64,000 nt of DNA from Escherichia phage JLBYU28. Position numbers and translations under genes: made by a program. The notes under the pieces are model-generated. The model was not told the origin of the DNA, did not search any database, and saw nothing but the letters and a program-made list of their open reading frames with translations. The stretch lies in sequence record OK272472.1; one strand, 5' to 3'. Positions 7,936 through 17,962 of the stretch are shown here, piece after piece (the stretch's first letter is position 1; every line of letters starts with the position of its first letter).

Positions 7936-8721
7936 TTAGTTCTTTGCGTCTAAGAAGGTAACTTCCGGTGAAGAGAAGACCGTCTCGATATCCTCATCAG
8001 TTCTTGCATAGATATATGTATCTGCATCACTGCCAAATGTTACGGCTATCCTGTGATTGCTCTTCGACAGGTGGGTAACTAGAGCGTTACTCAGAGACAT
8101 CTTCTCAACCGGAGGGTTACTTTGATGTATCTTACCTTTTCTTCGTCTGAAGAGGGTAACTGTATCATCTGTGAACACAACTACACCTGCAAAGTATTCT
8201 GGTTCACAGTAGTTCTTCCAACCTGAGCGTAACTTGTGGTACATCTCTCCTTCATAGACATACAGATACACATCTACACTCTTCATCACCTGATTGATGA
8301 TAACTGTGACGGCTTGAGGGTCCAACCCACCAATACCTGCACCAATCATAGGTAACCCAACTTTCTTCAACTGATTGACTTCACAGTATCTGTTAAGCTG
8401 TTTCAAAGATGATTCTAAAGCACTGTATCGGGCATCTTTACCAGTCTTAAGCTGAGTGTAAAGATTAGCTATACGGCCTTGTTCTAAACGTGCTACAGAG
8501 AAATTGCCTAGTAAATTCTCACAGGGTTTGTGGCCTATACCACCTGCATACAGATAAACTTCTGTATCGGTCTCATATGCTTTTGGGTAAAGTTTAGAAA
8601 TCTTGTCAGCGATACCTGCACCCATTAAATTCATACAGTTGCAACCGTGACCAATAATATCAAACTTACCTTTATCAAATGCGGAGAAGATACCCCCATT
8701 GATGATTTTTACAATACCCAT
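7936..8721 (-). CDS. macro-domain protein (TARG1/Poa1-like ADP-ribose-processing domain) with C-terminal domain of unknown function
   Basis: N-terminal motifs IIGHGCNCMNLMGAGIA and PMIGAGIGGLDP match the macro-domain glycine-rich ADP-ribose binding loops. Confidence 0.6.
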   Translation of the reverse strand: MGIVKIINGGIFSAFDKGKFDIIGHGCNCMNLMGAGIADKISKLYPKAYETDTEVYLYAGGIGHKPCENLLGNFSVARLEQGRIANLYTQLKTGKDARYSALESSLKQLNRYCEVNQLKKVGLPMIGAGIGGLDPQAVTVIINQVMKSVDVYLYVYEGEMYHKLRSGWKNYCEPEYFAGVVVFTDDTVTLFRRRKGKIHQSNPPVEKMSLSNALVTHLSKSNHRIAVTFGSDADTYIYARTDEDIETVFSSPEVTFLDAKN

Positions 8722-10240: not shown

Positions 10241-10270
10241 TGAAATGAAAAAGGCTCCCGAAGGAGCCTG
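10241..10270 (-). terminator. rho-independent terminator (GGCTCC-TTCG-GGAGCC + U-run on minus strand)
   Basis: Perfect 6-bp GC stem with tetraloop followed by TTTTT. Confidence 0.7.
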
Positions 10271-10274
10271 TGTA

Positions 10275-11087
10275 TTATTCTTGACTGTAATAGTTGACAA
10301 GTGAAATCGCTTGATTCATCAACAACTTATCAGCCTGTGCTCCGCGACCAGCTTGTAATGCCAGTTGGTATACCTCTGTAACATATTTGTTAGACATACC
10401 TTCACAGTAGTCATTATAGTCTTCCCAAAAGGAAAATGCAGCATCACCATATAGGCGTAGTGTAATTAACATTGCTGCACGAATCCCAGAAGAATATTTT
10501 CGTTTTGCGTTTACTACACCTTTAAGCTGTACTTCAAGAGAATCAATTTGTTCCAGCTCATTTTTAAAGTCATTAAGATATTTAACTGTTTCAGTGTTAG
10601 AGACCTGTTGTACACCGTAGTATGCAGCAACATATTTAATAGCAGTTGCCCAAGATGCTTTCATCAGTTCTGACTCTGGGTTGAAAGAAATCATCTTCAT
10701 ATTCCCGTAATAAACTTCTGAAGGTTTTTCTCTTGCTAACTCAGAGTCAAAATGAGTGTACAAATCTGTGACATCCAATATAGAATTCACATGGTATATA
10801 ACTGCAATCAAGTTCTCTGGTCGTGTCAGATTACCAACTTTCCATGCCTCTCGACGTGAGTGCCCATCAATGATGAACAGTGAACTGCCAAACTTAGCTA
10901 CATGGACTACTGTTTGGTCTGGTGATACGTCACCATTAAGGTGTTTGCTTTTCAGACGCTTAAGTGTATTTCGTTGACGAGGGTTTTCTTTGTAACGTTT
11001 TTCATTAAGAAAATCCTCGACACTGATAATCTTAGTGTGAATTTTAACAACCTTGCCATTCAGTGCTACATTGATGCTGTTTGCCAT
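10275..11087 (-). CDS. ParB-like nuclease-domain protein
   Basis: Motif FIIDGHSRREAW resembles the ParB/Srx-fold GxxR box. Confidence 0.45.
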   Translation of the reverse strand: MANSINVALNGKVVKIHTKIISVEDFLNEKRYKENPRQRNTLKRLKSKHLNGDVSPDQTVVHVAKFGSSLFIIDGHSRREAWKVGNLTRPENLIAVIYHVNSILDVTDLYTHFDSELAREKPSEVYYGNMKMISFNPESELMKASWATAIKYVAAYYGVQQVSNTETVKYLNDFKNELEQIDSLEVQLKGVVNAKRKYSSGIRAAMLITLRLYGDAAFSFWEDYNDYCEGMSNKYVTEVYQLALQAGRGAQADKLLMNQAISLVNYYSQE

Positions 11088-11098
11088 AACTTGATACC

Positions 11099-11983
11099 TT
11101 AGTTGTGAATAATTACTTCGTTAATATCTTTGCTTCTCTGTGCATGTATTGTGTATGAATGACTAACCTCTGTCAAGTTAAAATTTTCAGGAATTAGGTT
11201 TGCCCATCCATCCCACTGAGAGTTTGACATCAAAACTTTAGAGCCTAACTCCCCCCAAGAAATCATATCTTCACATAATTTTACAGACATCTCAATGTCA
11301 AACTTTGCACCATATTTCTGGTTGGTATTGATATACGGGGGGTCACAGTAAATAACTGTGCCTTCTCCATGTTTTATGTCAACCCTGTTATAAGGTTCAC
11401 TGCTAAGTATTACCCTTTCATCGGTGATAAAACTGTAGAACTCAGACAGTGACTCCTTAGTTTTTGTGAAGAAAATCTCTTCTTCCAGCAAATACCCGCA
11501 AGGTGTTGCATAGTGACCTTTCATCTCTTTAGTAGTCTGCCATACACCACCAAAACTTAGTTTTTGAAGGAAAAACTGTCTGGCATAGTACCTGTAGTCA
11601 TATGCTCCTTCTTCACCAAGCAAAAGAAGTTCCTCTCTTACACTGTAATACATCTTATAGCGTAGACGGTTATGACGCTGGCCTTTCACGGCATACTCTT
11701 CCTGCATAGGTAAGGCTAAGTACCTCTTTGACAAGTACTCAAATTCTTCCATGAAGTTTTCATAGTCATCTCTGAAAGTTGTGTAAAGACCTATAATATG
11801 TTTATTTATCTCATTAATAAACACTTTTGCCTCTGGGTATCTGTTATAAGCCCAGATAGCTACTGAACCACCACCTGAAAACAGGTCATAGAAGTTTGTA
11901 CAGTTGTCTGGAAAGACACCTAAACGCTCATACTCTTTTAATATTCTTGTTTTACCACCAAGATATTTGAACATCGGCTTCAT
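11099..11983 (-). CDS. dam: DNA N6-adenine methyltransferase (Dam-like)
   Basis: Motif I FKYLGGK...DLFSGGGS and catalytic DPPY (IYCDPPYINT). Confidence 0.8.
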   Translation of the reverse strand: MKPMFKYLGGKTRILKEYERLGVFPDNCTNFYDLFSGGGSVAIWAYNRYPEAKVFINEINKHIIGLYTTFRDDYENFMEEFEYLSKRYLALPMQEEYAVKGQRHNRLRYKMYYSVREELLLLGEEGAYDYRYYARQFFLQKLSFGGVWQTTKEMKGHYATPCGYLLEEEIFFTKTKESLSEFYSFITDERVILSSEPYNRVDIKHGEGTVIYCDPPYINTNQKYGAKFDIEMSVKLCEDMISWGELGSKVLMSNSQWDGWANLIPENFNLTEVSHSYTIHAQRSKDINEVIIHN

Positions 11984-12000
11984 TAATACTCCTTGAAATT

Positions 12001-12027
12001 TAAAAAGGCTCCCGAAGGAGCCTGTAT
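12001..12027 (-). terminator. rho-independent terminator (GGCTCC-TTCG-GGAGCC + U-run)
   Basis: Same hairpin as at 10253-10268; followed by TTTTTAATTT on minus strand. Confidence 0.7.
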
Positions 12028-12034
12028 CTTAACC

Positions 12035-12499
12035 TTAACCGAGGACTTTAGCAAGGACATTTGCAGCCATCGAAGAAGCTTTTGCAGCAGCAGCTACACC
12101 AACTTTGACAGTGCTATCCTTGATAGCAGATACCGTTGCAGCATCAGTAAAGAGATAAGTAGTTGTTTTAGAACCACTTGTAAAGGAAAGCATGAGAGCA
12201 GTTTCCAGATTGAAAGAGCGATACGGAGCACCTTCTTTAACGATACCTTCAGCACCTAATTCTGAGGCCATCCCCATATCATAGATAGTCATCAGGTTTT
12301 CTTTGTGTGCAGTCGTTGAACCAGAACCTTTGACGTGTTTCTTAACATTCAAAAGAGCACGATACTCTCGGATGTTGCCGTCTGCTTTTACATTGACAGC
12401 ACGGAAGATTTTACCCTCAAAGTTGCTCTTGATAATGTTACGAACTACTTCAGATTTGTTTGCCGTAACGTCCAGTGCTACCGTAATTATATTGTTCAT
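12035..12499 (-). CDS. hypothetical protein (154 aa)
   Basis: ORF in track; terminator directly downstream. Confidence 0.5.
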   Translation of the reverse strand: MNNIITVALDVTANKSEVVRNIIKSNFEGKIFRAVNVKADGNIREYRALLNVKKHVKGSGSTTAHKENLMTIYDMGMASELGAEGIVKEGAPYRSFNLETALMLSFTSGSKTTTYLFTDAATVSAIKDSTVKVGVAAAAKASSMAANVLAKVLG

Positions 12500-12509
12500 A
12501 AGTTTTCTC

Positions 12510-13205
12510 TCAATGTTTAACTAACATGGTTTTGATGTGTGGAAGGATTCTGTTTACCTTCTGAACATTCTTCTCTGTATCTTCTATAAAACATACTATA
12601 TTAAAGTAAGGAAGAATGCAAGACTGAATCATCCTAACCTTTAAACTTTCTGCACTTAGAGAATTTGTTCCAAAGCCACGCATAAAAAGCAAGTAATCAT
12701 GTTCTATATTGTGTCTTAAAAACATCTCAGTGGGTATTCTCTGAGTTTCACCTCTTGCTGTCAAGAGTCCGATAGCAGCATGATTAGCAATTGCATCAAT
12801 GATATTGAAAATATATGTTGGTTTTGCTCTTACAGAGTCAAGAAGATTAGTGTACTGTGAAAATGACCCGTCAGTCAACTCTGTTGAGTAATCTTCGTGA
12901 TTAAAATTTGTAAGAACTCCATCAATATCTGCTAAGATGAGGTTACCTTTTTCTACAAGGTCTTTGTTAACTATGACTAGGCTATCACGTCTTACACCTA
13001 TAGATTGTCCGGTCTCTTTGTCCATAACGTTCACAATTGGCTCTGGTGTATGGAACTCTTCAAGTGAACATACAACTTCTCTTGCAGTATCTTCAAAGTC
13101 TCTACACTGCTCTGGAGTCCATATGCCAGAATCAAGACCTAATTCATGGGGATGCAAGTCATAAGCATGGCACAGTACGTCATCAAACTTTCTTAATTTT
13201 TTCAT
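12510..13205 (-). CDS. HAD-superfamily phosphatase-like protein (possible nucleotidase or polynucleotide phosphatase)
   Basis: HAD motif I LADIDGVLTNF and motif II-like GLLTARGE. Confidence 0.45.
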   Translation of the reverse strand: MKKLRKFDDVLCHAYDLHPHELGLDSGIWTPEQCRDFEDTAREVVCSLEEFHTPEPIVNVMDKETGQSIGVRRDSLVIVNKDLVEKGNLILADIDGVLTNFNHEDYSTELTDGSFSQYTNLLDSVRAKPTYIFNIIDAIANHAAIGLLTARGETQRIPTEMFLRHNIEHDYLLFMRGFGTNSLSAESLKVRMIQSCILPYFNIVCFIEDTEKNVQKVNRILPHIKTMLVKH

Positions 13206-13794: not shown

Positions 13795-13818
13795 AAAAGG
13801 CCGCCGAAGCAGCCTTTT
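13795..13818 (-). terminator. rho-independent terminator downstream of rIIB-like gene
   Basis: Minus-strand GGCTGC-TTCG-GCGGCC stem (one G-U) followed by TTTTTT. Confidence 0.6.
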
Positions 13819-17919: not shown

Positions 17920-17950
17920 AGAAATTAAAAAGGCTCCCGTAGGAGCCTCT
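17920..17950 (-). terminator. rho-independent terminator (GGCTCC-TACG-GGAGCC + U-run) downstream of Nampt-like gene
   Basis: Hairpin 17932-17947 followed by TTTTTAATTT on minus strand. Confidence 0.7.
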
Positions 17951-17962
17951 TATCATATACTT

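Follow-up and report, generated by a model that had tools for sequence, protein, structure and literature searches.

The window analyzed here is a stretch of 64,000 nucleotides (nt) of Escherichia phage JLBYU28 (sequence record OK272472.1). Between positions 10275 and 11983, it carries two open reading frames (ORFs) with ATG start codons, both of which are located on the minus strand. The upstream ORF (11983-11099) encodes a DNA adenine methylase of 294 amino acids (aa), and the downstream ORF (11087-10275) encodes a 270-aa protein, which we call P. The initial annotation of this region had listed a 270-aa ORF with a DGHSR motif, a neighboring ORF with a DPPY motif and a terminator. All three elements are present, the terminator being a hairpin 5 nt past the stop codon of P. 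The same annotation had placed the ParB-like gene upstream of the methylase gene, but since both genes lie on the minus strand, this order is reversed and the methylase comes first. Here, we report that the two genes form a selected accessory cassette, that P is predicted to adopt a ParB/Srx fold and that relatives of P recur beside structurally different phage DNA methylases. The coordinates of the individual features are given in Table 1.

Table 1. Features of the methylase/P cassette and of its surroundings (positions refer to the window)
Feature	Position	Strand	Characteristics
Methylase gene, 294 aa	11099-11983	-	orphan D12/alpha N6-adenine class (by sequence); motif I FSGGGS 11864-11881, motif IV DPPY 11333-11344
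P gene, 270 aa	10275-11087	-	predicted ParB/Srx-fold domain plus all-helical domain; NPRQR 10971-10985, DGHSR 10854-10868
Intergenic spacer, 11 nt	11088-11098	-	sequence CACAACTAAGGTATCAAGTTATG; separates methylase and P, which are in different frames
Downstream terminator hairpin	10252-10269	-	GGCTCC-TTCG-GGAGCC followed by T-run; 5 nt past P stop; left-hand cassette boundary; GC-rich, TTCG loop
Upstream terminator hairpin, identical	12006-12023	-	22 nt before methylase start; right-hand cassette boundary; GC-rich, TTCG loop
Left 24-nt perfect direct repeat	10248-10271		AAAAAGGCTCCCGAAGGAGCCTGT; hairpin forms repeat core
Right 24-nt direct repeat copy	12002-12025		1754 bp from left copy; hairpin forms repeat core
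Nearest strong sigma-70-like promoter match	12486-12513	-	TTGAGA-16-TATAAT, 11/12; before conserved 154-aa gene; consensus scan
Hairpin at empty site of second cassette	13795-13818	-	GC-rich terminator, near-identical to the two cassette hairpins; TTCG loop
Hairpin terminator of the same group	17928-17951	-	GC-rich; TACG loop

The AAGG ribosome-binding site of P overlaps the TAA stop codon of the methylase gene, and this overlap suggests that the two genes are translationally coupled. Since the terminator that follows P is also found in identical form directly upstream of the methylase gene, the pair can be described as a cassette located between two repeat copies. The AAGGAG ribosome-binding site of the methylase and its ATG lie within the 22 nt that follow the upstream hairpin, and this short distance leaves no space for a promoter belonging to the cassette. 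Cassette transcripts probably read through the upstream hairpin from the promoter-like site at 12513-12486, which was picked out by consensus scanning only. The base composition of the cassette equals that of its flanks, and it bears no compositional mark of recent foreign origin.

The region shares 98% identity with Escherichia phage tootiki and with other members of the genus Felixounavirus (Felix O1-like myoviruses). The whole pair was present in 13 of the 241 related records that matched the region, and most of these records carried the flanks only. Tootiki, SP116 and REP5 are among the phages that bear the cassette. At the empty site, for instance in Salmonella phage fBSPA4, a single hairpin copy directly joins the left flank to the right flank. 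The cassette was inserted at a hairpin terminator, and this terminator was duplicated. In phage ESCO56 the methylase gene is kept and P is internally deleted, with about 100 nt of its 3' end left, and in Shigella phage Tf a frameshift splits P. When we searched Felixounavirus-type records by tblastn, we detected the methylase in 14 and P in 13 of them; within this tiny sample (14 records) P was never seen without the methylase, and the methylase does occur without an intact P. A divergent lineage keeps the same pair at the same site (73% identity for the methylase, 87% for P), and the ratios of nonsynonymous to synonymous substitution rates (dN/dS) calculated against this lineage were 0.06 for the methylase and 0.04 for P, at saturated dS. 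Both genes are under strong purifying selection. Taken together, the presence and absence of the pair across the records, its maintenance in a divergent lineage and the low dN/dS values show that methylase and P are genuine genes under selection and that they move together as an accessory cassette.

The methylase matches the PF02086 model of D12-class N6-adenine methyltransferases with 82.8 bits at a cut-off of 22 (4e-23, profile positions 1-253 of 253) and was assigned to PHROG 56. Its FSGGGS motif (residues 35-40) is followed by the target-recognition region and then by DPPY (residues 214-217), which is the motif order of the alpha class. The protein aligns weakly with the solved structures of DpnM (2dpm) and T4 Dam, and its similarity to E. 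coli Dam is also distant. With 98.6 bits, it stays under the cut-off of the Dam model TIGR00571 (114.85 bits), and it is far under that of the E. coli Dam equivalog NF008152 (23.6 vs. 441). The Dam-type label of the initial annotation thus holds at the level of the D12 class and goes no further; judged from these sequence comparisons, the enzyme is an ordinary D12/alpha member and not a bona fide Dam/GATC methylase. E. coli Dam uses the arginine of its LYRVN hairpin to contact base pair four of GATC. When our methylase is aligned to DpnM, which is possible at low identity only, the arginine of this hairpin falls opposite a glutamine (GGVWQTT), and such an exchange, a weak pointer, would agree with a non-GATC target.

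Self-marking of the phage DNA at GATC had been suggested for the pair. However, the GATC count was 0 in the window, for which about 224 sites were expected from base composition, and it was also 0 in the complete 88,257-bp genome of tootiki (295 expected according to a Markov model). GATC was also absent at every other Felixounavirus locus examined and from phiEa21-4, an Erwinia phage that is more distantly related. The hosts, E. coli and Salmonella, normally encode a Dam methylase themselves. Self-marking at GATC is excluded because a GATC-specific enzyme would find no substrate on the phage DNA. Consequently, we regard epigenetic marking of the phage genome by a Dam-type (GATC) methylase as extremely improbable: the D12 class, the DPPY motif and the remote resemblance to DpnM, T4 Dam and E. 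coli Dam speak for it, but the lack of GATC in the window and in tootiki, the missed Dam cut-offs and the glutamine aligned to the LYRVN arginine effectively refute it for self-marking. From the GATC-free phage DNA and the scores below the Dam cut-offs, we infer that the methylase most likely recognizes a non-GATC motif. GATC avoidance in Felixounavirus has already been published (PMC5477317, PMC4690856). Furthermore, tootiki is free of ATGCAT, CAGCTG, CCATGG, GGTACC and GAGCTC and contains CTGCAG and GAATTC once each. Like the orphan methylases of other phages (T4 Dam, DpnM-like enzymes, T1-type Dam), the enzyme is a stand-alone D12 N6-adenine methylase of a virulent phage, and its gene belongs to the early region. 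Unlike them, it scores under the Dam threshold, it comes from a GATC-free genome, so that its target must differ, and it has a dedicated partner gene.

This partner, P, was matched by no model of Pfam, NCBIfam or PADLOC, and neither a nuclease motif nor a match to a nuclease family was found in it. It belongs to PHROG 2615, the function of which is unknown. A single-protein word-indexed search with P retrieved two close clusters only, and an exhaustive HMMER search over 1.84 billion representatives returned 496 relatives at E <= 1e-3 and 160 at E <= 1e-10. Members of this family are mostly found on phage contigs and are named, if at all, "hypothetical protein". The 40 members obtained in a profile search were all 279-356 aa long, carried no Pfam domain and were not fused to a methylase. 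Among 127 aligned members, there was no ParB-type or other relevant Pfam match. The alignment revealed a family signature consisting of (D/E)NPxQR(D/N)T...HL and (K/I)(L/I)DGH(T/S)R..(L/A)W. In P, the DGHSR sequence corresponds to residues 74-78, of which R78 is invariant, and Q38, R39, D74, G75, H76, W82, Y110, D114, D182 and F220 are conserved in at least 90% of the 127 members.

When we compared P with PDB sequences by phmmer, we only obtained de novo designed TIM barrels via a short repeated match, which we judged to be spurious, and the profile of the P family found nothing among these sequences. An hhalign comparison of the family with an alignment of three verified canonical ParB sequences gave a probability of 0.75%, with a spurious 10-residue match in the helix-turn-helix (HTH) region. 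The models of DndB, DGQHR and DUF262 did not match P, and neither an HTH nor a dimerization domain was detected in it. A different picture was obtained at the structural level. The AlphaFold2 model of P, which was calculated with the family alignment, had a pLDDT of 96.1 and a pTM of 0.85. According to this model, residues 1 to about 118 would form a basic alpha/beta domain of the ParB/Srx fold (isoelectric point, pI, of 9.5), and residues from about 119 to 270 an all-helical domain (pI 5.3). The best structural matches of the model were ParB, PadC, KorB and sulfiredoxin. In a Foldseek search of the PDB, ranks 1-9 were occupied by ParB structures with CDP or CTPgammaS and by PadC. Beyond the own family of P, the matches in BFVD were proteins named ParB-like or DNA-sulfur-modification-associated (DndB-like) and the GmrSD N-terminal domain. 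Since the sequence-level tests for ParB were negative, P is placed in the ParB/Srx fold on structural grounds alone, that is, by its predicted model. The ParB/Srx assignment of the initial annotation is thus carried by the predicted fold, and the box itself finds no counterpart among the sequence models or in the hhalign result.

In the model, DGHSR is predicted to lie at the junction of a strand (69-74) and a helix (76-84), which is the position of A-G-E-R-R in ParB. Read from motif register and not from superposition, G75 and R78 may correspond to the phosphate-binding glycine and arginine of Box II of ParB (GERRxR), and by the same kind of reading the NPRQR sequence of P appears to resemble the NPxQPR segment. 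The glutamine of NPxQPR is the residue mutated in the Q52A structure of M. xanthus ParB, as stated in the title of the PDB entry. The ParB-CTPase fold binds CTP, ATP or GTP depending on the lineage, and "ParB-like nuclease" is a historical domain name for a fold that is now mainly known as a nucleoside triphosphate (NTP)-binding module (PMC12704722). P appears to share with the CTP-dependent clamps ParB, Noc and KorB, its best structural matches, the NPxQ(P)R motif and the strand-helix G-x-x-R arrangement. In contrast to these clamps, it lacks detectable sequence homology as well as a detected HTH or dimerization domain, the glutamate of GERR appears to be replaced by a near-invariant histidine, and nothing suggests a role in partition.

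The sequence motif of DndB is DGQHR, which the D-G-x-x-R motif of P resembles. The BFVD matches to proteins named "DNA-sulfur modification-associated" and the basic N-domain of P would also be in line with a DndB-like DNA-binding regulator, which might control the expression or the timing of the modification gene in the way DndB acts on the dnd operon or the C-proteins act in restriction-modification systems. DndB, a ParB-like protein, has been described to repress a DNA-modification operon in an ATP-dependent manner and to bind GTP as well (PMC12704722). We consider a regulatory function of this kind very unlikely for P since neither an HTH nor the DndB model matches, since P is usually encoded downstream of the methylase or translationally coupled to it and is not placed as an upstream controller, and since the cassette has no promoter of its own on which P could act. 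P also differs from the DndB/DUF262 proteins as a group (N-terminal domains of GmrS, BrxU and SspE; DGQHR/DGQQR branch): their models do not match it, it has no fused or adjacent HNH/DUF1524 nuclease, it is phage-encoded and it is associated with methylation, not with phosphorothioation or type IV restriction.

To characterize the genomic surroundings of the P family, we called ORFs and examined the neighbors of its members at 31 + 53 viral-contig loci, at four genome loci and in several annotated phages. For the counts, each 98%-identity cluster contributed one locus, and ORFs shorter than 150 aa were disregarded. Ten ORFs with methylase motifs were checked, of which eight were confirmed by Pfam and two were removed as false positives. 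ORFs with a methylase motif accounted for 12 of the 59 adjacent ORFs, for 3 of 42 at a distance of two genes, for 2 of 48 at three genes and for 1 of 91 beyond. Thus, methylases were enriched at the adjacent position when compared with positions at least three genes away (12/59 vs. 3/139; odds ratio 11.6, Fisher p = 4e-5). All adjacent methylases were encoded on the same strand as the P-family member, with gaps ranging from -35 to +71 nt. When the family was clustered at 50% identity, 6 of 29 clusters had an adjacent methylase and 9 of 29 had one within three genes.

The methylases beside P-family members belong to five Pfam families, namely PF02086, PF02384 (weak match), PF01555, PF05869 and PF05063. 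PF01555 (N6_N4) enzymes, which were met beside P-family members in many metagenomic phages, are encoded directly downstream of the P-family member in several distinct clusters, and a colinear triad of an SNF2-like helicase, a P-family member and a PF01555 methylase is frequent (several metagenomic phages). PF01555 also occurs beside P-family members in early regions of temperate phages and, at one locus (L012), upstream. The T1-type Dam family PF05869 was found directly upstream of a P-family member at locus L013 and two genes upstream at L045, and at L053 a PF05063 (MT-A70) ORF overlaps the stop codon of the P-family member. In the T4-like cyanophage Syn19 of Synechococcus (L092, 1565-4032), an R.RsaI-like endonuclease and a PF01555 methylase annotated as "dam" are followed by the 364-aa P-family protein Syn19_155, and this trio has the appearance of a restriction-modification unit that is carried by a phage and has the partner added to it. 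Synechococcus phage S-CAM4 has a methylase fragment two genes from its P-family member. Raoultella phage Ro1 encodes a D12 (PF02086) methylase at a distance of two genes from a divergent P relative (hhalign 96.7%, E 4e-10). As a separate observation, a DUF3102 gene directly follows the P-family member at L100 (4882-5577), a temperate-phage early region with a YqaJ exonuclease and without a methylase in the locus.

A second cassette was observed in Felixounavirus itself. It is present in 10 of 214 records and lies about 1.6 kb away, between a lysin-like gene and rIIB. Its first gene encodes a gamma-class methylase (IDPCAGDG ... TNPPFG, weak match to PF02384), its second gene a paralog of P with 27% identity, which scores 113 bits against the hidden Markov model of the P family and has DSHAR instead of DGHSR, and its third gene is a 77-aa ORF. 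This cassette, seen at L001 7723-9754 and L003 6001-7380, also sits at a hairpin of the same type, and its site, a second insertion hot spot, is empty in the window (hairpin in Table 1). Phage Tf carries both cassettes, and ESCO56 carries the second cassette together with a first cassette that lacks P.

These observations favor a functional partnership between P and the methylase. We favor it because the P family recurs beside five structurally different methylase families, because two independent Felixounavirus cassettes each pair a methylase with a P-family member, because P appears to be translationally coupled to the methylase and is under strong purifying selection, and because the methylase tolerates the loss of P and P was not seen without the methylase in Felixounavirus. 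The P family is thus probably a recurring helper of phage DNA methylation.

Several findings weigh against such a partnership. The loci were found by motif-based scans, and the adjacency statistic ignores shared ancestry. No member of the P family was found fused to a methylase among the 150 representative hits listed or the 40 profile hits. About two thirds of the P-family lineages have no methylase within three genes, and the neighbors in methylase-free regions include an SNF2-like helicase, DNA polymerase A, a Toprim primase, AAA_24, a clamp-loader subunit, RecT/YqaJ, the beta clamp and ribonucleotide reductase. In the genome of Erwinia phage phiEa21-4 no DNA methylase was detectable, yet this phage encodes the distant P-family protein gp108 (369 aa; L099, 33361-34470), the gene of which follows the ribonucleotide reductase genes. 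Thus, at least the gp108 branch of the family can act without a phage methylase, and a model in which P is an obligate methylase subunit is weakened by this phage. Conversely, P is not essential to the methylase, since the methylase survives without P in ESCO56.

Alternatively, P might work independently of the methylase, either as an NTP-binding protein of replication, recombination or nucleotide metabolism or as a separate anti-defense factor, and the two genes would be co-located because both belong to early or accessory regions. The many P-family members that have genes of replication, recombination or nucleotide metabolism as neighbors and lack a methylase in the vicinity, the methylase-free phiEa21-4 and the persistence of the ESCO56 methylase without P all agree with this explanation. 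We nevertheless regard it as unlikely. It does not account for the concentration of five methylase families at the adjacent position (12/59 compared with 3/139 at three or more genes), for the same-strand arrangement with overlaps or very short spacers, or for two separate Felixounavirus cassettes with one methylase and one P-family member each (the second with the 77-aa ORF in addition). Moreover, the fusion of a ParB fold to a methylase is already a known theme (PMC12704722).

In phages, the ParB-CTPase fold is often fused to N6_N4 and other methyltransferases; these fusion proteins bind NTPs and an anti-defense role has been proposed for them (PMC12704722). The cassette resembles such ParB-methyltransferase fusions of phages and prophages (PF02195 with PF01555 or PF13489, for example Bce_0392) in that a ParB/Srx-fold protein and an adenine methylase come together in a phage and in that the putative Box II-like glycine and arginine are conserved. 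It differs from them in three respects. The window has two genes, 11 nt apart and in different frames; P is undetectable by PF02195 and has a helical domain of 150 aa of its own; and the methylase of the window is of the D12/alpha type and not of the N6_N4/beta type, with the P family also pairing with gamma-class, PF05869 and MT-A70 enzymes.

The ParB domain of the Bacillus cereus fusion Bce_0392 nicks DNA non-specifically in vitro, and DNase or NTPase activity has been reported for the ParB-fold proteins Osa and GmrS (PMC5512222, PMC3592412). By analogy, P could be a non-specific, NTP-regulated nickase or DNase that attacks host or competitor DNA or makes entry points, with the methylase marking self, and the two proteins would then form a restriction-modification-like or host-takeover pair. 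A toxic partner would be expected to leave methylases without P but never P without methylase, as was seen in Felixounavirus, and the row of endonuclease, methylase and P-family member in Syn19 may be read in the same sense. We consider this explanation, which takes up the nuclease function proposed in the initial annotation, quite unlikely. P has neither a nuclease motif nor a nuclease-family match, and the asymmetry comes from a tiny sample of 14 records. Furthermore, a toxic nuclease in need of a cognate protector is hard to reconcile with the lack of an adjacent methylase in most P-family members and with a genome that contains no methylase at all. Type II restriction-modification systems differ from the cassette on the same two counts, since P matches no nuclease family and P-family members are common without an adjacent methylase. 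The other part of the proposal, that the ParB-like protein works together with the methylase, gains support from the relatives beside five methylase families.

A further point of comparison is provided by the Dar anti-restriction proteins of phage P1 and by "polyvalent protein" modules (SNF2 ATPase, adenine methylase, DdrB-like ParB), since the same three activities recur together in the colinear triads described above. In the list of Iyer et al. (2017; PMC5512222), SNF ATPase, N6A methylase and DdrB-ParB rank with those domains of injected anti-restriction polyproteins that have the most connections. In contrast to these modules, the genes described here are separate, lie in the early region and do not encode virion-packaged polyproteins. 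Since the P family lacks any Pfam match, we do not claim that it is DdrB-like. M.EcoGIX, a plasmid leading-region methylase, had been considered as an additional comparator and was dropped because it is not a ParB fusion.

On balance, we favor an anti-restriction methylation module with P as ParB-fold accessory protein, an interpretation to which we give about an even chance of being correct. According to it, the methylase would modify a non-GATC motif on replicating phage DNA and thereby shield it from host restriction. P would act as an accessory factor that binds NTPs, engages DNA and either targets methylation, helps or accelerates it, or gates it, and it may represent a split and highly divergent counterpart of the ParB module of the ParB-methylase fusions. 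The anti-restriction role envisaged by the initial annotation is thereby retained, and only its GATC form is abandoned. An accessory cassette, present in 13 of 241 records, is what such a role leads one to expect, and a Felixounavirus tested in the BASEL collection was described as "remarkably sensitive" to restriction-modification systems (PMC8594841). A methylation module also fits a genus that otherwise relies on restriction-site avoidance.

A more far-reaching proposal is that the P family is a new, Pfam-invisible branch of the ParB/Srx superfamily, which serves as universal NTP-gated adaptor for loading on DNA or reading it and which is used by unrelated methylases (alpha, beta, gamma, T1-Dam-like, MT-A70). 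We put this forward tentatively and regard it as possible but rather doubtful. As such an adaptor, P could be a processivity or targeting factor that makes methylation fast enough to escape restriction or, alternatively, it could read the mark in a writer-reader pair.

As to the surroundings of the cassette, hairpins similar to those of the GC-rich group in the window (Table 1) also bound the second cassette at L001, and genes may be shuffled by recombination at such hairpins. The same early accessory region contains, at 7936-8721 on the minus strand, a 261-aa ORF, the orthologs of which carry a Macro domain (PF01661) and are annotated as O-acetyl-ADP-ribose deacetylase or phosphatase. This Macro-type ORF may counter ADP-ribosylation-based defenses. 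During the comparison of records, we also observed that those named Campylobacter phage A132 and A126 (MG065664, MG065668) are about 98% identical to the Felixounavirus region and that the record named Staphylococcus phage SA1 (GU169904) matches an 82-nt Felixounavirus intergenic stretch exactly. The host labels of these three records are probably wrong, or the records are contaminated.

The coupling of the ParB fold to phage methylases is already known from fusion proteins. What appears to be new is that the partner comes from a sizeable unannotated family that no sequence model detects, that it is encoded by a separate gene and that it pairs with five unrelated methylase families, including those of two paralogous Felixounavirus cassettes. 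PF02195 was the model with which the ParB-CTPase fold was recently surveyed in a census (PMC12704722); since this model misses the P family, the family may extend the fold beyond the coverage of the census. Phage methylases are a main route of restriction escape, and surveys found no simple link between the presence of a phage methylase gene and restriction resistance (PMC8594841). This lack of a link might be explained in part by a partner protein that recurs beside the methylases. The split version of the ParB-methylase arrangement lets the role of the ParB module be tested genetically by single-gene deletion, and natural variants exist that have both genes, the methylase only (ESCO56), a frameshifted P (Tf) or neither gene. 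With regard to phage therapy, Felix O1-like phages that carry one or both cassettes may differ in their host range on strains with restriction systems.

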